A stretch of DNA of 64,000 bases from a virus, in IMG/VR virus record IMGVR_UViG_3300008111_000019, positions 47,088 through 111,087 of that record; one strand, written 5' to 3'. Numbering within the stretch: position 1 is the stretch's first letter; every line of letters begins with the position of its first letter. The notes below the pieces were generated by a model. It did not search any database and was not told the origin of the DNA. It saw only the letters and a list, made by a program, of their open reading frames with translations. The position numbers and the translations under genes are program-made. Shown in pieces: positions 1,909 through 53,742 of this stretch.

Positions 1909-3981
1909 ATGCCATATATTGTAAATTTTACAGATAAAGACAATAAACTGCCAATAACAGTTTATGATAATACATCTAGCAACGATACTAGTTTAACATT
2001 TCCTGGAAGAAACGTTACAGGATACGGACAGATTATTGCTGAAAACTTTTTGGCCATACTAGAAAATTTTGCCAAAGATACTGCACCAGTAAACCCAATC
2101 GAAGGCCAATTATGGTATGACACAGGGACTGCTAGATTAAAAATATGGGATAGCACTTTATGGAAAAGTGCGTCTAGTATCCAGACTAGCAGTGTTGAAC
2201 CTCCAACTGAAGAAAGTAAAGTAGGTGAGTTGTGGGTTGATACAGTTAATCAACAGGTATATGTTTATTCTGGTACACGATGGATTTTAGTAGGTCCTAC
2301 ATTTTCTACAGGTTTACGTAGCGGTCCACTAGTTGAATCTATTATAGACTCCGACAACATCACTAGGGTTGTATTAACCTTATACATTGAAGATGTGCCA
2401 GTGGTTATTATTAGTAGAGATAAATTTACTCCTAAAATTTCTATTTCTGGTTTTACAATTATTAACTCGGGATTCAATATTACTTCAAATGATGTAAGTG
2501 AAATTGCTGCCGAAACTAAAATATGGGGTACTGCTACATCTGCAGAATCCTTAATTATCAATGATGTTGAAATTCCTGCTTCTCGATTTATGAGAACAGA
2601 TATAACAAACACTTCAGATTTTCCTATAAACATTAGAAATAACAGTGGTGTTTTGATTGGAGTCAATAGTAATTTCAGTATCAGCACTTCTGAAACCTCT
2701 GCAAAAATTTACAATAGTTCTGTAGGATCTAGTATAGATTTACAAATTAACAGAGAAGGGGCACCAACTACTGTATTAAGAGTTTTTGATAACAAGATAG
2801 GTATAAACGTTGCTGCCCCGGAAGAGTCTTTAGATGTTGACGGAAATATTAGAACTAACGGAAGTTTAATATTAACCGGTACAGCATCTAGTACTAATTT
2901 TAATAATGGTACGTTTAGAACTGCAGGCGGTGCAGCAATTTCTAAAAATCTATTAGTCGGCGAAGGTATAATAGTAAATGGCACAGCCAATTTTGAAAAC
3001 ACTCAGCCGCAGACTACAGATACCTATGACTCCGGTAGTGTTACAAAGAGATGGAAAACAGTTAGAACTAAAACACTTGTAGCAGAAAATATTGAAGGTG
3101 TTTTAGTAGGTAACATTGTAGGTAATGCAACTACAGCAACCAATTTAAAATTTCCTACTACATTTAGAATTGAAGGAGATATTACATCTCCTAACGTATC
3201 GTTTGACGGACAGGTTGGCGGTCTAACTAAAACTTTCAACACCACACTGACTGCAACATTGATTAGTAGTAAAAATGAACCAGTTCCTAATACCAGCAAG
3301 CCCGATGACTATGTTTTAGTATTCAGAGGCGGTACTGGTCTATTAAAAGAAACCAGAGATGTATTCATTGGAGATTTAGGAGTACCAGTCGGAGGTATTA
3401 TACCTTTTGCAGGCGCTTTTGCTCCGTATGGTTATTTGCTTTGTGATGGTAGCGAAGTTGAAAAAACCAAATATAGTTTATTGTTTGACGTTATAGGTAA
3501 TACCTACAACGGAGCATTACCCTTAGTGGGTGTAGGTACATATCGTTTACCTGATCTGCGAGGCAGATTCCCCCTAGGTAAAGATAATATGGATAACGGA
3601 ATAACAGTGCCAAATACCACAGGTGGATATATTGATGCAGGTGGCGGAAATATTGACAGAGTTTCTGGTACTGCGCCTGATAACCTAGGCGACGGTGGCG
3701 GTCAATCTACTAATAATTTAACAGTGTCTAATCTTCCTGATCATGAACACAACATGAAAGGTTCTACAGGCCAGCAATATTATGCTTCTAGACTTGACAC
3801 AGCCATTCCTTTAGATACAGGATCTTTTTCTGATAAAGGACCTACATCACTTGGTCAAACACAATATGTTCCTACATCGGGCGGAGTTAAGACTGCAGGA
3901 GCACTGGGACAGGCCTTTTCAGTGATGAACCCGTACTTAACATTAAACTATATTATTCGCTCGGGCCCACCGAACTTCTAA
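1909..3981 (+). CDS. Tail fibre protein with C-terminal phage tail-collar domain
   Basis: PVGGIIPFAG..APYGYLLCDG..YRLPDLRGRFPLG..MNPYLTLNYII collar signature; N-terminal domain shared with the next three genes. Confidence 0.85.
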   Translation: MPYIVNFTDKDNKLPITVYDNTSSNDTSLTFPGRNVTGYGQIIAENFLAILENFAKDTAPVNPIEGQLWYDTGTARLKIWDSTLWKSASSIQTSSVEPPTEESKVGELWVDTVNQQVYVYSGTRWILVGPTFSTGLRSGPLVESIIDSDNITRVVLTLYIEDVPVVIISRDKFTPKISISGFTIINSGFNITSNDVSEIAAETKIWGTATSAESLIINDVEIPASRFMRTDITNTSDFPINIRNNSGVLIGVNSNFSISTSETSAKIYNSSVGSSIDLQINREGAPTTVLRVFDNKIGINVAAPEESLDVDGNIRTNGSLILTGTASSTNFNNGTFRTAGGAAISKNLLVGEGIIVNGTANFENTQPQTTDTYDSGSVTKRWKTVRTKTLVAENIEGVLVGNIVGNATTATNLKFPTTFRIEGDITSPNVSFDGQVGGLTKTFNTTLTATLISSKNEPVPNTSKPDDYVLVFRGGTGLLKETRDVFIGDLGVPVGGIIPFAGAFAPYGYLLCDGSEVEKTKYSLLFDVIGNTYNGALPLVGVGTYRLPDLRGRFPLGKDNMDNGITVPNTTGGYIDAGGGNIDRVSGTAPDNLGDGGGQSTNNLTVSNLPDHEHNMKGSTGQQYYASRLDTAIPLDTGSFSDKGPTSLGQTQYVPTSGGVKTAGALGQAFSVMNPYLTLNYIIRSGPPNF

Positions 3982-32527: not shown

Positions 32528-33367
32528 TTATCTCGGTGCAAAATCTTGTTGTAGTTTAATGTTGTCAAAGAATTCTTTCTTTGTACTCTGATCGTCTTTG
32601 AAAGCACCTTTAAGAACTGTGGTCTGTGTAAGACTAGAATGTGCCATAATACCACGATTCTCACAGCAACCGTGAACTGCTTGAATATAAATTCCTACAT
32701 CTTTGGCATCTGTGGCTCTCATGATTTCCCGAGCAATGTCATTAGCAAGTTCCTCCTGGAGAGTACCTCGTCTCGCACACCACTGAGCGATGCGTGTGTA
32801 CTTTGAGAGCCCGATGAGTTTCTCAGCAGCAATAAGACCAATATAAGCAACGCCACTAACGGGTTGATGATGATGGCTACACATAGAGCGCAACTCACTA
32901 CGAACAACCAGCATACCTTCATACCGATCCTCCGTATCATTTGGAAATGCTGTTGCGTCTGGTGCTGGTTCATATCTTCCTGCCATTATTTCATTAAAGT
33001 ACATTTTAGCCAAGCGTCTCGCTGTACCCTGCGAGTTAGGATCGTTTTCACGATCAATCAGCAAGCGATCAAGCACTAGTTCAAATGCTTCTGTTGCTTC
33101 ATCAATTAATTTCTCTATATCACCTTCGTGCAAGTAGTCACTGATGTTGTCACCTGCCCAGAAACGTTTCTGGTCACGTTTCATTTTAAAGCGAAGATGA
33201 TCGCCTAGATATGCTTCTTGATAGCCACCGTCACCTGCCATAGCGTCTAGTGCTGTTTCCTTTTTAACATATACTTCTTTGTTTAACGGAGTATATTCAT
33301 CTGATTTAAACGGTGCTCTAAGATCACCGTTAATTGTTGGATCTAGTTTAAATTCTGTTTTGCTCAA
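32528..33367 (-). CDS. folE: GTP cyclohydrolase I
   Basis: TARRLAKMY, SMCSHHHQP, IGLSKY.R, RGTLQE, HGC..RG, T.T; TTG start. Confidence 0.95.
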   Translation of the reverse strand: MSKTEFKLDPTINGDLRAPFKSDEYTPLNKEVYVKKETALDAMAGDGGYQEAYLGDHLRFKMKRDQKRFWAGDNISDYLHEGDIEKLIDEATEAFELVLDRLLIDRENDPNSQGTARRLAKMYFNEIMAGRYEPAPDATAFPNDTEDRYEGMLVVRSELRSMCSHHHQPVSGVAYIGLIAAEKLIGLSKYTRIAQWCARRGTLQEELANDIAREIMRATDAKDVGIYIQAVHGCCENRGIMAHSSLTQTTVLKGAFKDDQSTKKEFFDNIKLQQDFAPR

Positions 33368-33400
33368 TTATAATTCTCCGAGTTATTGTCGTGGATGACA
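33368..33400 (-). promoter_or_regulatory. Candidate compact pseudoknot over the folE RBS
   Basis: TGTC-ATCCAC-GACA-ATAACTC-GGAG; loop TCC complementary to SD GGA. Confidence 0.45.
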
Positions 33401-33402
33401 TA

Positions 33403-38926: not shown

Positions 38927-41596
38927 TCACTCAAAATCGAATAGTTTACTGAATGTGTTATCTGACCTTGTGCTACTGATGTCCCATTCCAAAACACCAA
39001 TAAGGTTTTCAAGTTTTTCATCGATGACTGTAGTTTCCATTTCACCGTCATCAAATGGAAGATCTTTGAACCATTGAGGAAGTCTAAGTTCGTCAACAGG
39101 ATACGCTACGGATGTATATGCCATAGGGTTGTCTTTGAGTTTACAGACAATAACTTTGGCCCCGTCAACAATACTCATTGAGTATTTGTCATCCATCATA
39201 CGCTTCAAAGTGTTCCAGTTTAAACTAGCACGAACGTGTCCGGGCATGTTAGTCTTACCTGCTTTCTTTTCTTTGTCGCGATACTCTGAAATCTTGTTAG
39301 CACGTTTAGGGCTACCTTTCTCCCAACCGGGTCTAGTTTTAAACTCAGTACGGAACCCAGTGATATACTCTAGTACATCTTCTTTTTGCGAACCTTTCAA
39401 CACCATTTCAAGAACTTCACTTAAAAAGTCTTGAATGGCTACCGGAGTATCAGATCTCTTGAGATCCAATCCCATGGCTTTTATCTTTCCCGCTTTACCA
39501 TCAATATCGGTACGTTTTCCTTCTTTGTCGTAATAGAGGACTGCATATCGCTTTTTGGTGATGAATAGTCCTTTGCTTGCAACAATCTCGCGACCTGCCT
39601 TGATGACCTCTCCTCGAGTTTTGGGTGTATGGAAGGCGTCCTGCATGAACTTAACAAACGTGCCATTTACTTCTTCTCCTATAGTATCATAAAGTTCGAT
39701 TACTGATTCTTTAGTCCAAGGTAAAGAACCTTTTTCAATTTCTTTCTTTAGAGTAGTGTATGCTGAAAAATAGCAAGAATCTGTATCACCATATATAATG
39801 GATTTACCTATATGATCGTATTCCCCAGTAACAATCTCATTCACTTTACTTGCCATGTGACGAGCAATGGCTCTACCAGTAAGAGTTGTGGATTGACCAA
39901 TTCTGTTATCAAAGAATCTACAGCCTGGATTAAGAATAGCGCCATACAAACTGTTAAGGTTAATCTTCTTGACCAACTGACGCTTGTCCCAGTATTCTTC
40001 TTCAATCTTATTTCCAGCAGTAATACATTCTTTAAGTTTGGCCTGCATCTCTTTACGTTCTTTATACCAACGTGCTAAGAGTCCAGGAATGATACCTTCT
40101 TTGTCATAGGTAAAGATAGTGCCGTTGGCCGATAGCATCCACGGCTGGTTAGAATCAAAGATTAGATCATATATCTGTGCGGCACTGAGTGTATCACTGC
40201 CACCATCTTCCCAGTCTATGGTAATTTCTCTACCCACTTCTTTATTCATCACAGCAGTATATTCTAATGAACCAAATACACCTTCCCATGCGCTGGCAAA
40301 AGATTTGCCTTTGGCCATTTCTGCTGCGATATAATCTTTCGTTCCATCTTGGCGTAACTGCCCAACGATAGTTTCTGGACCCATGTTTAACGCACGAATC
40401 GCAGAAGGATACAGTGAGTTAATATCTAGTGAACCGATCCACTCATGAATACCTTTCTTAGGATAGGCAACATAAGCACCAGCAGCCTGTGTATCGCCAT
40501 GCTCTTCCATCTTTTTACGATTAGGAACGATCATTCCTCTTCGATGTGCTTCATTGATAATGGCCTGCTCTGTAACTGCCACAGCACCCATGGTAGTCTG
40601 TAACAATACAGTACAGTCGTGTGCTAGTTTATTAGCAAGGTCTAGAAATTTTAATTTTTGATCTAACTTGTTTAATAGCGCACAATCTTGTCTATTATAT
40701 TCGATGAATTTACGGAAGTCATTGTTGTACAACTGATCTAATGTACCTTCATAGACTGTTTTGTTCTCACCTATCTCCATTTCTCCGATAGCATCTAGTC
40801 GATATGTATGTCGTTCTTCATAGGTATACTTTCTATACATTTCGAGACTATCTAAGTGAACTCTGCCGACAAGATCGTAAGTAACGGCAGTCTTTCCAAA
40901 CTTTTCATATTCTCTTTTCTTAGGATAGCAGTTCCACAAACAGAAACGTCTTGTATCTTCTTTGCCTAATACTTTGATTACACGATTAACAGTGTAAGGA
41001 ATATCAAAGCCTTCCGAGTTCCAACCACTTAATACGTCTGCATCTTCGATGAGATCTAAGAAGTTATCTAACATATCTGCTTCATTATCGAATAACATAG
41101 TATTAGGAAATTCTTCTACAGCCTTTTTAGCCTCTTCCATGCTCATAGTTTTTGGCGGAATAGCAAGACAGACTAGAGTGTCCATCCACTGCAAATGAAC
41201 AGCAATAGCAGTGATAGGCATAAATGCATCGTCGGGAGAGGCGTAACCTCTTTCTGGATCAAAGTCTACTTCAATATCGAAAAATGCTACATTTAGTTTT
41301 GGAGCATCAACATTTAGATAATGATCTTCTAAACACCGATAGATAGGATTGATATCAGATTCGTAAAGTTTTTTGTTGGAATGGATTGCTAATTCTTTAC
41401 GGAGTTCTTTGATATTTTTACATAGAACTCGACTTAGAGGTTCGCCTTTGATAGACTGATACTTTCCTCTAGGGTCGTAATAGTAGAATAAGTGTTTGGC
41501 AGGATAGTCTTTAAAATTCCTATTGCCTTTGTCATCACGCTCAACGACACGAATCATGTCATCGTCGCGATCATAGAATGCGTCAACGTAACTCAA
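38927..41596 (-). CDS. polB: Family B DNA polymerase (gp43-like)
   Basis: FDIE exo I, WNSEGFD, YN.QD, DINSLYPS, K...NSLYG, YGDTDS, KKRY; TTG start with AGGAG SD. Confidence 0.97.
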   Translation of the reverse strand: MSYVDAFYDRDDDMIRVVERDDKGNRNFKDYPAKHLFYYYDPRGKYQSIKGEPLSRVLCKNIKELRKELAIHSNKKLYESDINPIYRCLEDHYLNVDAPKLNVAFFDIEVDFDPERGYASPDDAFMPITAIAVHLQWMDTLVCLAIPPKTMSMEEAKKAVEEFPNTMLFDNEADMLDNFLDLIEDADVLSGWNSEGFDIPYTVNRVIKVLGKEDTRRFCLWNCYPKKREYEKFGKTAVTYDLVGRVHLDSLEMYRKYTYEERHTYRLDAIGEMEIGENKTVYEGTLDQLYNNDFRKFIEYNRQDCALLNKLDQKLKFLDLANKLAHDCTVLLQTTMGAVAVTEQAIINEAHRRGMIVPNRKKMEEHGDTQAAGAYVAYPKKGIHEWIGSLDINSLYPSAIRALNMGPETIVGQLRQDGTKDYIAAEMAKGKSFASAWEGVFGSLEYTAVMNKEVGREITIDWEDGGSDTLSAAQIYDLIFDSNQPWMLSANGTIFTYDKEGIIPGLLARWYKERKEMQAKLKECITAGNKIEEEYWDKRQLVKKINLNSLYGAILNPGCRFFDNRIGQSTTLTGRAIARHMASKVNEIVTGEYDHIGKSIIYGDTDSCYFSAYTTLKKEIEKGSLPWTKESVIELYDTIGEEVNGTFVKFMQDAFHTPKTRGEVIKAGREIVASKGLFITKKRYAVLYYDKEGKRTDIDGKAGKIKAMGLDLKRSDTPVAIQDFLSEVLEMVLKGSQKEDVLEYITGFRTEFKTRPGWEKGSPKRANKISEYRDKEKKAGKTNMPGHVRASLNWNTLKRMMDDKYSMSIVDGAKVIVCKLKDNPMAYTSVAYPVDELRLPQWFKDLPFDDGEMETTVIDEKLENLIGVLEWDISSTRSDNTFSKLFDFE

Positions 41597-41608
41597 ATTT
41601 TTCTCCTA

Positions 41609-41661
41609 TGCAATTTTTGGCTTGCAAATACCTACTGTGCGGTTTATGGCCCGGCCTACCA
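41609..41661 (-). promoter_or_regulatory. Tandem hairpins with GCCAWAAA loops in polymerase 5' leader (candidate translational operator)
   Basis: CGG-GCCATAAA-CCG and TGCAA-GCCAAAAA-TTGCA, second abutting SD. Confidence 0.55.
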
Positions 41662-41670
41662 TCTTCTTTC

Positions 41671-41678
41671 TATTTATA
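41671..41678 (-). promoter_or_regulatory. Late promoter TATAAATA
   Basis: Exact T4 late consensus overlapping upstream stop codon. Confidence 0.55.
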
Positions 41679-41958
41679 GCATTCTAATAAGACCAATGGT
41701 ATCTATGGTTGTAAGAAGTATATAATTAGCCAACATACCAAAGGAACCACGACTATAAGAGCACCAAGCATATATAGCACAACCAATAATCCAAATTGGG
41801 TAAAGAACAAGGAGAGGTGGATTTGGAACGGTGAGTGCCATAACGACAGAACAGCCAATAGAAATAGCCCAAGCAACGACCTCAAGACAAAAACGTACTC
41901 TACCGCTTTTCCAATCTTCTTTGATCCAATCAGTGATTCCATATAATATGTTTATCAT
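41674..41958 (-). CDS. Small multi-pass membrane protein
   Basis: About three hydrophobic segments. Confidence 0.7.
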   Translation of the reverse strand: MINILYGITDWIKEDWKSGRVRFCLEVVAWAISIGCSVVMALTVPNPPLLVLYPIWIIGCAIYAWCSYSRGSFGMLANYILLTTIDTIGLIRML

Positions 41959-42215
41959 TCTGGCAATCGCTTAGTTACACCTAGGATCATTTCAATCTCA
42001 TCCCACTCTTGTTCGTGCTCTTTCCAGTTATCTTTATGTGCAATCTTAATTGCCTTATTGATCCAACTAGGCTTGATTTGAAGTTCTTCTGCTACTGCTT
42101 TAACAGTTTCTTTAAGACCTTCTTGCAGATCTTCCACTTCACGCAGTACATTGGAGCCTTCGTTGATTAGTCTTTCTAATTTTGCTTTTTCTTCAGGGCC
42201 GTAAATTTTTGACAT
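41955..42215 (-). CDS. dsDNA-binding protein (T4 DsbA-like)
   Basis: Start moved to ATG 42215 (AGGAG SD); helical LKETVKAVAEELQIKP..INKAIK.AHK pattern. Confidence 0.55.
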   Translation of the reverse strand: MSKIYGPEEKAKLERLINEGSNVLREVEDLQEGLKETVKAVAEELQIKPSWINKAIKIAHKDNWKEHEQEWDEIEMILGVTKRLPE

Positions 42216-42234
42216 GTGTAATCTCCTAATCTGT

Positions 42235-42263
42235 ATTATATAGCCGTAAAAAAAGCCGGTCAA
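42235..42263 (-). promoter_or_regulatory. Sigma70 promoter TTGACC-17-TATAAT
   Basis: -35 42263-42258, -10 42240-42235, 17-nt spacer. Confidence 0.8.
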
Positions 42264-42296: not shown

Positions 42297-43295
42297 TTAT
42301 TTTTGATCTTCGCTTAACACATCATACATTTCAAAACGTCCACCGTTTCTTTCATAGATCATAGCAGCAAAAATTTCTGCCTTTTGGCTTTCTTGAACTT
42401 TAGTAACAGAAACTCGATTGGCCCATGTCCATAGTGCTTTGTCTAATGGATCAATTGCTTGTTGTCCGCCACTTTCGTTGACTAGTTTTAACATTTCTTT
42501 TAGACTAAGTTTTGTCTCAACGCTTTCTGCTACAACTGCTTTATCTTTTTTAACAGATTCGTTCTTCTTACCAAAGAATTTTTCTTGCTTGGCCGACATA
42601 CCTTTCTTGCCATCTTTCTTAGCACCGCCTTTATCAGCAACTGCTTTTTTCATTGGCTCTTTCTTGTCGCCGTCTTTGTCCATATCTAAGAAATCTGGCT
42701 TTGCTGCTTCGTCCATCTTCTTGTCTTTCTTAGACATTTTATCTTTCTTGGCTTCTACCATCTTGGTAAACTTTTCTTTGAATGCAGTTTTGTCAATGCT
42801 TTCGTCTTTCTTTTTCTCTTTGTCAGACTCTTTATCTGCTTTCTGGCTTTGCCAACCTTGTACTTTAGTAGCCTTTACTTTTGCGCCACTTGGAAGTTCT
42901 ACTTCTCTTTCTGATTTCTTTGCAGAAGCACGATCGTTTGCTTCGGCAACTTCTAACGATTCATCTTTCTTTTTCTTCTCTGGAAGACCTTTGTGCTTTG
43001 TAGATGCAAAATCTTTAGCATCCTTCTTGCCCATGTCCTTAGCGACTTTAGCAACATCTTTACTTGCCGGCTTTTCGCCTTTTTGTGTAGCGTGAACCAT
43101 GCCCATGAATTTTTGTTGTGCCTTGCTCACTGCTTTTTCAGCAATAATGCTTTCAGTTAGCGCAGTAACTCCTGCTAACACACGTAATTCTGTATCTTCG
43201 TCTAAACGAATTGGAGCAGCCTTTTCGGGTGCTTTTGGAGTATCGATAGGTCCGTCGATACTTTCAATTTTGCTGATCAGTGATTTAAAATCCAT
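42297..43295 (-). CDS. Lys-rich probable internal head protein
   Basis: Modules AVSKAQQKFMG..STKHKGLPEK and EF-hand-like DMDKDGDKKE separated by xxE sites; late promoter upstream. Confidence 0.55.
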   Translation of the reverse strand: MDFKSLISKIESIDGPIDTPKAPEKAAPIRLDEDTELRVLAGVTALTESIIAEKAVSKAQQKFMGMVHATQKGEKPASKDVAKVAKDMGKKDAKDFASTKHKGLPEKKKKDESLEVAEANDRASAKKSEREVELPSGAKVKATKVQGWQSQKADKESDKEKKKDESIDKTAFKEKFTKMVEAKKDKMSKKDKKMDEAAKPDFLDMDKDGDKKEPMKKAVADKGGAKKDGKKGMSAKQEKFFGKKNESVKKDKAVVAESVETKLSLKEMLKLVNESGGQQAIDPLDKALWTWANRVSVTKVQESQKAEIFAAMIYERNGGRFEMYDVLSEDQK

Positions 43296-43574: not shown

Positions 43575-44105
43575 TTATTTATTTCGTCCGCTTTTCATAT
43601 TAGCACACCAGTGATACATTTTAGCCTTTTCACCTGATGCATTTTTAGCCTTGCTACGAAGATCTGCAACAGATCCAGAACAACTAGCACCTGCATTTTT
43701 TACTCGACCCGGACGGCTTTTACCTTTAACTTTACCGTCAGCAAAGTTTTCCCCTACATTATAAGTCTTATCTGTTTTTTGTCCTTTTTTCTTTTCATGA
43801 GATTTAGGATCTATATCAGTAGTATCTAGTCCGGTTTTCTTTAAGTTTTTAATATATTCGTGTTCCTCATCTTCGCTGCCAAAAGATAAAATGGCGCTAG
43901 GTGGTCCCTTGCCGAAATCGTGTTTTCCAAGACCCTTTAAGTCGCTAATGTGCTGTCCTAGTTTATACCAATCGTAGACATCACTAACATCAACTTTTAC
44001 AGTGCCTTTTGGCATAGTAGGTTTGGTTTCGGGACCCCGAGGTTTTTCGTTTGGATGTTGATCCTCTGATTGTTTTCTTTCTACAATAAATTCACGTGCT
44101 CTCAT
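43575..44105 (-). CDS. Probable internal head protein
   Basis: N-terminus MRAREFIVE; basic C-terminal module after VGE. Confidence 0.6.
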   Translation of the reverse strand: MRAREFIVERKQSEDQHPNEKPRGPETKPTMPKGTVKVDVSDVYDWYKLGQHISDLKGLGKHDFGKGPPSAILSFGSEDEEHEYIKNLKKTGLDTTDIDPKSHEKKKGQKTDKTYNVGENFADGKVKGKSRPGRVKNAGASCSGSVADLRSKAKNASGEKAKMYHWCANMKSGRNK

Positions 44106-44896
44106 TTCATTGCCACCTGGAATGCTTGATGTTTTTCTTTACGTTGATCTAGATGTTTAAGTCCCGGATTGATGGGTTTAGTTACATCCTTAACATCTTT
44201 GAAATCCGAAACTTTAGGCTGCACACGATTCTGCCAATACCACACTGCAACTTTAGCGGCCACGTCTGGACGTTCAACTAATTCTGGTTTATTGACCAAA
44301 TCTAATCCTAATGCTTGTCCTGCACGTTTATAATTGTATTTGCCTGTGAGTTGTATATATCCACGACCCTTAAATTTTGCTCCATCGCCGGGTTTGGTAT
44401 TTCCTAATATCTTTGCTTTACGTGGTGCAAATTTAATATCGTATTTTTTAAAATCTAATGAACCACCAATTTCTTTCATATGCTTAAAGTCCAAAGTCTC
44501 GTGTGCGGCCTGTGCTAAAAATGCAGCCAGTTCTTGTCCTTTGATACCTGCTTTCTCTGCTTCTTTTTTTAGAATAACTTCATGTGGATTGCCTGTTACT
44601 GTTTTTGATAAATCTTTTTTACTTACTTGTTTTACAATATCAGGCTTGTTTGACTTTGATGCTTCGGCATCGCCTGGGGCACCAAATGCTAACGCTGTGC
44701 CTAATGCACCAGCAGCAGCCCAGTCTTTCCATCCTTCCTGTTCAACACTTTCACCACCACCTCCGCCGTCGCCCCCACCGTCGCCACTATAGCCTACAGC
44801 ATAACCGTATCCACCGTACGGTCCAGGACCATAGGCAGCCCAACGTGGTTTCTTACGTTTACGTTTTTTTTCAGTGACGAACTCGTGTGCTCTCAT
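44102..44896 (-). CDS. GH19 lysozyme/chitinase-fold protein with N-terminal targeting leader
   Basis: AFLAQAAHET, GDGAKFKGRGYIQLTGKYNY, INPG; N-terminal MRAHEFVTE and Gly linker. Confidence 0.85.
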   Translation of the reverse strand: MRAHEFVTEKKRKRKKPRWAAYGPGPYGGYGYAVGYSGDGGGDGGGGGESVEQEGWKDWAAAGALGTALAFGAPGDAEASKSNKPDIVKQVSKKDLSKTVTGNPHEVILKKEAEKAGIKGQELAAFLAQAAHETLDFKHMKEIGGSLDFKKYDIKFAPRKAKILGNTKPGDGAKFKGRGYIQLTGKYNYKRAGQALGLDLVNKPELVERPDVAAKVAVWYWQNRVQPKVSDFKDVKDVTKPINPGLKHLDQRKEKHQAFQVAMK

Positions 44897-53160: not shown

Positions 53161-53742
53161 TTATAGTTCGGGTTGAGGTGGTTGAAATGGCATTGGTTTT
53201 CCAGTACTGCTCATCATAGGAGCAGCAGGAACGCCACCAAATGGACTAGAATCTGCTGGTGCTCCAAAACCGCCTGTGCTCATAGTATTTCCTCCTAGAG
53301 GAGCACCGCCAAATGCTGATGTTGGCGATTTGAATGAAGCATTGAATCCGCCTAGACTAGCCGATGCACTAAATCCTCCTGTTGGACTGCTAGGTGCAGT
53401 TGGACTTGGACTAACGCTAGGTGGTTTATTAGCAGCATCTAACGCTTTGGATTTTAGATCCTTATCGTTGCCTGCTAACATAATACCGCTTAGTGTTCCT
53501 GTAAGGAATGTGGCGATAGGAATGATCAATTCAAAAAACTTTTGATCAATTGGTGAAATAGCATTGAGAGGCTGTGTAACAAATATGATAGAATATAAAA
53601 CAACAAATACAATTCCAGTTAATGTCAATGCTAAACAAATACCAATAAAGAATCTCAACCTAGCCATTAACTGGTCTTCGGTATAGATAAAGAATTCTCC
53701 AGTATCTGTATTATTCTTTTTAAATTTCGATAGTAACTCCAT
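53161..53742 (-). CDS. Two-TM membrane protein with Pro/Gly/Ser-rich tail
   Basis: Two hydrophobic helices; start at TAATG overlap. Confidence 0.7.
   Translation of the reverse strand: MELLSKFKKNNTDTGEFFIYTEDQLMARLRFFIGICLALTLTGIVFVVLYSIIFVTQPLNAISPIDQKFFELIIPIATFLTGTLSGIMLAGNDKDLKSKALDAANKPPSVSPSPTAPSSPTGGFSASASLGGFNASFKSPTSAFGGAPLGGNTMSTGGFGAPADSSPFGGVPAAPMMSSTGKPMPFQPPQPEL

Follow-up and report, generated by a model that had tools for sequence, protein, structure and literature searches.

To our knowledge, phage T4 and a few close relatives provide the only cases of a replicative DNA polymerase under autogenous control through its mRNA, and we know of no structure of such a polymerase-mRNA complex. 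The gp43 polymerases of T4, RB69 and RB49 bind a hairpin in their own leader next to the ribosome-binding site and repress translation, while some T4-related polymerases do not autoregulate; for the gene 43 operator there is no evidence of a pseudoknot (PMC3014915). Read from their records, the T4 and RB69 leaders each hold a single hairpin with a stem of 4-5 bp and an 8-nt loop next to the Shine-Dalgarno sequence (SD), the loop being of other sequence than the one described here. Leader pseudoknots are found in T4 gene 32 and in E. coli rpsO, whose products (S15 in the case of rpsO) repress their own translation (PMC3014915). The pseudoknot of gene 32 sits well upstream, as the nucleation site for cooperative binding along an A/U-rich tract that lacks structure.

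The leader element described here precedes the polymerase gene of an uncultured virus. The window, by which we mean the whole 64,000-nt stretch analysed, comes from IMG/VR record IMGVR_UViG_3300008111_000019, a viral record of 111 kb whose completeness is estimated at only 31%, and the source is therefore taken to be a giant phage. Its family-B DNA polymerase gene, polB (38927..41596, minus strand; 889 aa, with the TTG start codon at 41596-94), matches Pfam DNA_pol_B and DNA_pol_B_exo1. The nearest solved structure is RB69 gp43 (E 5e-62), with which the product is collinear over residues 26-835, and by this similarity the window polymerase is an RB69/T4 gp43-type orthologue. The best cultured polymerases, those of Sinorhizobium phage Phosso and Agrobacterium phage Atu_ph07, are about 50% and about 47% identical to it, and no cultured phage is similar to the window at the DNA level. 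A spacer of 77 nt separates polB from an upstream 94-aa ORF with its stop codon at 41674-41676. Other minus-strand genes nearby encode a protein like the T4 dsDNA-binding protein DsbA (41955-42263; Pfam PF11126, above threshold), a 332-aa protein with a weak DUF3008 match (42297-43295) and a protein with a GH19 (chitinase class I) domain (44102-44896).

Directly 5' of the SD and the TTG codon, the minus strand holds two hairpins with 8-nt loops of the form GCC-NN-AA-R, all within 41603-41662, and a GGU complementary to the loop GCC stands 5' of each hairpin. Unit 1 opens with A-N-GGU (41658..41662; GGU at 41660-41658, with a conserved A at -2), the putative 5' strand of a pseudoknot stem S1, and continues into hairpin 1 (41639..41655), the S2 stem of that unit, with a 5' strand at 41655-41651 that includes a bulged C41653, the loop GCCAUAAA at 41650-41643 and a 3' strand at 41642-41639. 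A variable linker (41633..41638), 6 nt long in the window and 4-7 nt across alignments, leads to unit 2, where GGU (41632-41630) and the following AUU (together 41627..41632) are the presumed S1 5' strand and loop L1, and where hairpin 2 (41609..41626) forms S2 from UGCAA at 41626-22 and UUGCA at 41613-09 around the loop GCCAAAAA (41621-14). The SD, AGGAG (41603..41607), begins 1 base past hairpin 2 and is followed by six bases to the TTG; at the other end of the leader an extended -10-like word, TGC-TATAAA (41673..41681), overlaps the stop codon of the 94-aa ORF. The initial annotation had described tandem hairpins with a shared 8-nt loop, each preceded by GGU, and the letters of the minus strand match it exactly; the hairpin 1 stem that it had drawn is present, but its three CGG/CCG pairs are better read, by homology, as four pairs with the bulged C41653.

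Like the gene 43 operator, the window leader is short, lies between a -10-like word and the SD and precedes a gp43-type family-B gene, and its hairpins are of the same kind (16-18 nt, with a stem of 4-5 bp and an 8-nt loop near the SD). The gene 43 operator consists of one unit, whereas the window leader has two, and the loops carry GCC-NN-AA-R here but UAAC in T4 and RB69. The loops of the window element are also proposed to pair with a 5' GGY into a pseudoknot, unlike the gene 43 operator as reviewed (PMC3014915). The leaders of gene 32 and rpsO share with the element the pseudoknot as such, but in the window two tiny units abut the SD and the gene that would be regulated encodes a polymerase.

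Conservation of the twin hairpins

Taken by itself, the window sequence gives twin hairpins that do not go beyond chance. The fold of the leader is no better than that of shuffles (z-score +1.11 for 96 nt, where the minimum free energy is -11.9 kcal/mol, and +0.28 for 131 nt), the window contains 8 copies of the loop word GCCAWAAA where 6.7 are expected, and TATAAATA is likewise not enriched there. An ORF of 18 codons (AUG at 41661 to UAG at 41608, minus strand) crosses both hairpins before it ends in the SD. It could thus be argued from the unremarkable fold and the ORF that the leader has no RNA structure, and that the hairpins are due to chance, to a leader peptide, to the terminator of the upstream gene or to a site acting at the level of DNA. 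The comparative data refute this reading, which we give practically no credence. Covariation is massive, as detailed below. A leader peptide can be set aside, as 101 of 139 leaders have no such AUG and the frame is disrupted by indels, and so can a terminator or attenuator, there being neither a U-tract nor a terminator-like site called, with no intrinsic terminator (G+C-rich stem plus U-run) anywhere in 41450-42050. Finally, the structure belongs to the sense-strand RNA, because S1 contains U-G wobbles, which on the other strand would be A-C mismatches.

Relatives were sought by polB homology among the uncultured viral contigs of IMG/VR, and 579 were confirmed. Both hairpins are present in each of the 80 best of these 579 (86-100% identical polymerases), and both are maintained, with many compensatory changes, in about 240 related contigs of viral origin, the polymerases of which are 70-100% identical. 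In a MAFFT alignment of 50 distinct leaders, collected by polB homology alone, 93.9% of the cells are paired, against 25-39% in slid controls; the covariation score of this alignment was reached by none of 500 shuffles, and the named structure outscores all shuffles and all slid controls. Searched with a covariance model, 100 loci (799 kb) give exactly one match each. The model was built on 60 leaders chosen for a uniform register, and the hairpin 1 pairing percentages of those leaders are biased accordingly; the MAFFT alignments mix two registers of hairpin 1, for which reason the paired-row set A3 was chosen, and the fair counts for hairpin 1 are those of alignments A1 and A4 and of a custom parse of the leaders.

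When 100 distinct leaders are aligned to the model, every one has hairpin 2 fully paired; both sides have changed in 37 of them at its third pair and in 57 at its fourth (CG/UA/AU and AU/GC/CG), while in the L252 lineage the second pair has gone from G-C to A-U. Across the 100 leaders, each of the four core pairs of hairpin 1 is formed in 94-100%, with 14-32 double changes per pair, and the custom parse distinguishes 48 stem versions among 139 distinct leaders, 61 of which, the window included, have a one-base bulge in the 5' strand. Both hairpins have stems of 4-5 bp and loops of 8 nt, occasionally 9, in which GCC and two A's are kept almost without exception, whereas at loop positions 4-5 unit 1 mostly has AU or AC and unit 2 is free of constraint. 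The AUU of unit 2 is nearly invariant (UUU in one marine lineage), and the conserved A two bases before the first GGY is found in 97% of 150 sequences. This comparative evidence, drawn from aligned leaders, is decisive for a twin-hairpin RNA structure, and the earlier proposal of a duplicated, structured RNA motif in the polymerase leader is confirmed, given both hairpins in 80 of the 80 best relatives and their covariation.

No catalogued family accounts for this element. Nothing in Rfam 15 matches at the element in the window (E up to 10) or in 9 diverse loci (E up to 5), in keeping with the idea of a new family, and word searches of the literature found no description of this leader element. 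The motif is absent from the leaders of the closest cultured polymerases (Phosso, Atu_ph07, Vibrio 2.275.O and CBB; 40-50% identity by local comparison). The leader element is thus an uncatalogued and widespread cis-regulatory RNA, whose structure is well supported and whose function we infer.

Proposed pairing between the leader triplets and the loops

Does each GGU pair with its loop? The GGY triplet stands 1-4 nt (mostly 2) 5' of hairpin 1 and 3 nt 5' of hairpin 2. In the base set of 50 leaders the GG of the unit 1 triplet is invariant, and the third base, opposite the loop G, is U in 42 and C in 8, so that triplet and loop are GGU:GCC or GGC:GCC almost everywhere. Five leaders (L020, L112, L202, L250 and L252) have AGU:GCU or AGC:GCU instead, every leader with a GCU loop has AGU or AGC, and this AGY:GCU state needs three separate changes on the polB tree. 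The A-C combination is seen in no leader, and a single leader, L188, has a U-U mismatch in the triplet pairing. A pattern scan for further GCU-loop variants returned, among the matches listed, three that were already known and chance matches. The AGY:GCU covariation, arising independently at least three times, supports an H-type pseudoknot in unit 1. In unit 2, the GGU and the GCC are invariant in all sets, and the unit may be read as a pseudoknot by its likeness to unit 1. Of the double pseudoknot that had been suggested for this leader, the first half is therefore supported by covariation and the second by analogy.

The alignments support a compact geometry in which a 3-bp S1 would stack on the 4-5 bp of S2 with no junction loop and with an A-rich L3, where two A's are invariant. 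A longer S1 of 5 bp (AUGGU with GCCAU) is possible in the window but is not conserved, the U being present in 26 of 50 leaders while its partner never varies.

Such a geometry recalls the preQ1-I riboswitch, likewise a compact H-type pseudoknot directly before the SD, with a third loop rich in A and a length of about 30 nt per unit. Tandem riboswitch aptamers are known, and it is conceivable that a metabolite such as a nucleotide or a 7-deazapurine is the ligand of each small pseudoknot, and that translation of the polymerase is tuned in this way. We consider this very unlikely. PreQ1-I has a junction loop with a ligand-pairing base and holds its SD in P2, whereas in the window element S1 and S2 abut, leaving neither a junction loop nor an internal loop for a pocket, and the SD lies outside the knot and outside any conserved pairing, with no anti-SD or terminator that could act as an expression platform. 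Conserved unpaired bases are few, the element conserving the bases of its short S1 helix rather than loop residues, unlike preQ1-I, and the Rfam search is silent up to E 10. A broader form of the proposal, in which the twin pseudoknots are a new class of tandem riboswitch or else an RNA that mimics the nucleic-acid substrate of the polymerase and is recognised by it as such, is also a long shot; if true, it would mean that a very large clade of uncultured giant phages ties its polymerase synthesis directly to nucleotide supply or replication load.

Distribution, copy number and operon position

A pattern scan for the unit 2 core found at least 120 contigs, and the matches listed, except three that are due to chance, all precede a polB with an identity of 70-90%. 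A further homology search, unbiased and seeded with the most distant of these polymerases, added more tandem forms, a single-unit clade and a few genes without the element. In 152 of 186 distinct polB rows the 110 nt upstream hold the tandem form, and in 23 they hold the single form; 5 further rows have the element before an inserted ORF, and 6 have none in that interval, so that the element is dispensable. On the polB tree (rooted at its midpoint, with no outgroup), tandem forms occur on both sides of the root, and the single-unit and element-less clades are nested among them; tentatively, the tandem form looks ancestral by this topology. Overall, the uncultured giant phages that carry the element come from lakes and seas and make up a large, abundant and distant clade.

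The single-unit form belongs to a marine clade (L253, L256, L259, L261 and L265-L288), in which, in the stretch of about 60 nt before polB, one unit of GGY, stem (GUUG/CAAC) and GCC loop abuts the SD; 5' of this unit stand a covarying hairpin of another kind and, after that hairpin, a conserved word resembling CAUGUAGAAGG. In L121 (100-157, minus strand), unit 1 is replaced by a G+C-rich hairpin with a U-run that resembles a terminator, and unit 2 alone is left before polB.

Every genome searched has one copy of the element, and it stands nowhere but at the head of the polB operon. The covariance model gives one strong match (60-83 bits) in the source record, in each of five large records, which include a complete 372-kb genome with terminal repeats, and in each of the 100 loci, all other matches being at or below 14 bits; the 14-bit match at 53616-53668 lies within an ORF and lacks the loop word. 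A single-unit descriptor, with or without the bulge, matches the complete genome 9 times, against 12.1 +/- 3.1 expected, and is thus not in excess, and the only units standing side by side in the descriptor scans are those of polB. A lone unit-like hairpin (GGU, with the loop GCCACAAG) occurs about 35 nt before an AGGAGG-ATG at G001:C1:about 321960-322030 (minus strand), probably by chance, as such matches are below their expected count. The folE pseudoknot candidate (33365-33402) does not share the twin-unit motif.

In five relatives (L098, L105, L106, L123 and L249) an extra ORF follows the leader, and polB overlaps its stop codon (ATGA or TAATG). In four of them this is a Cys-rich ORF of 57-65 aa with a CxxC-type pattern in the gap between leader and polB (L098:4839-5034, L105:4646-4857, L106:2045-2267 and L123:409-639, all minus strand), with its stop overlapping the polB start as ATGA; in three of these four the SD after hairpin 2 is degenerate. 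The ORF in L249 (738-1361, plus strand) encodes about 205-207 aa with a weak, sub-threshold match to 2OG-Fe(II) oxygenases. L173, of a lineage unrelated to L249, has an inserted ORF of 204 aa with no Pfam match (2817-3431, minus strand), and its polB has its own SD 15 nt past the stop of that ORF, which indicates that the element is tied to the operon head and not strictly to the ribosome-binding site of polB. Where the polB start overlaps the stop of the inserted ORF, control exerted at the first ribosome-binding site would pass to polB by coupling.

This distribution bears on which protein might bind the leader. It is possible that the element is an operator for a trans-acting protein other than the polymerase, be it a dedicated RNA-binding regulator of the phage or a factor of the host, perhaps acting as a dimer on two loops of the same type. 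Two units with one loop type would suit a dimeric or two-domain binder, and it is by analogy that the polymerase is proposed as the binder of its leader RNA. Nevertheless, we regard another protein as an unlikely candidate. A general regulator such as RegA has many targets, and because the element controls one operon only, being single-copy and found at the polB operon head alone, a general repressor is disfavoured. Moreover, the genes upstream of the leader vary among lineages, and no conserved neighbouring gene travels with it. A RegA homologue was not found in the source record or in two further genomes (G001 and G002), an argument that weighs little as the control genomes are silent too.

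Proposed control of polymerase synthesis

The position of the element relative to the transcript and to the SD suggests how it could act. Hexamers resembling a -10 element lie 15-20 nt before the first GGY in 109 of 150 distinct relatives; in the window the -10-like word is weakly enriched (18 against 12.2 expected), and a simple sigma-70 promoter scan did not call it. The word may be a promoter, and transcription would then start a few bases upstream of unit 1. The SD lies 1-4 nt past the stem of hairpin 2 across leaders and is unpaired in the predicted folds of 96 and 131 nt, CUCC occurs in none of 139 leaders, and of six words resembling an anti-SD only CCUC is found, in 7 leaders.

If the pseudoknot were the extreme 5' end of the transcript, as the -10-like words may indicate, it could be a structural feature that works without any ligand, protecting the 5' end of the mRNA or presenting the SD, and thus serve as a stabiliser or translational enhancer. 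An SD that is always open and a leader that stays at the operon head despite ORF insertions fit such a role. It nonetheless strikes us as rather doubtful: a stabiliser would need just a stable stem, and the stems here are short and weak, as the folding energy of the 96-nt leader illustrates, while the GCC/AA loop word, the GGY and most of unit 2 remain almost invariant as the stems vary, a pattern typical of specific recognition.

The most likely scenario is that the element is a 60-nt cis-acting RNA of two tandem pseudoknot units before the polB start, to which a protein binds so that the 30S subunit is either blocked or trapped at the SD alongside. With the SD open, and with no anti-SD and no terminator, a bound factor beside the SD would be the simplest mechanism. 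By analogy with gp43 of T4, RB69 and RB49, the bound protein would most likely be the polymerase itself when it is off DNA, and its binding would amount to autogenous translational repression. The presence of one copy per genome, the position against the SD and the lack of both anti-SD and terminator speak indirectly for binding by the polymerase. We therefore put autogenous repression by the polymerase through its leader pseudoknots forward as a tentative proposal, one that we hold with a little less than even confidence. Whereas the structure, its conservation and its confinement to the polB operon head are shown by the comparative data, it is the gene 43 analogy that would supply the binding of a protein, the identity of that protein and the sign of the regulation.

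The analogy is to be understood as one of function. Kinship with the T4 operator in sequence or structure is not borne out: the loop words differ, and the covariance model finds no match in the T4 locus (L409). Loop 1 reads GCC-A-UAAA in 68 of 139 leaders, and the UAAA of the RB49 loop sits in a different loop position; loop 2 is free at the site of the U. The 3' strand of the T4 hairpin and the bases that follow it (L409:5900-5940, minus strand) agree with 10 of 11 bases of the hairpin 1 word, a likeness that RB69 lacks and that is probably a coincidence. The element probably acts in the manner of the gene 43 operator, by analogy of position and gene, but it is not demonstrably a member of that family.

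For work on such control, the element offers a better-defined RNA of about 60 nt, with two putative pseudoknots and hundreds of natural variants in the same place. If the polymerase binds it, control of this kind would be old and widespread among gp43-type polymerases, and leader and polymerase would form a compact RNA-protein pair for structural work. If something else binds it, the element would represent a new class of regulatory RNA. Either way, the aligned leaders are a ready seed for a new RNA family.
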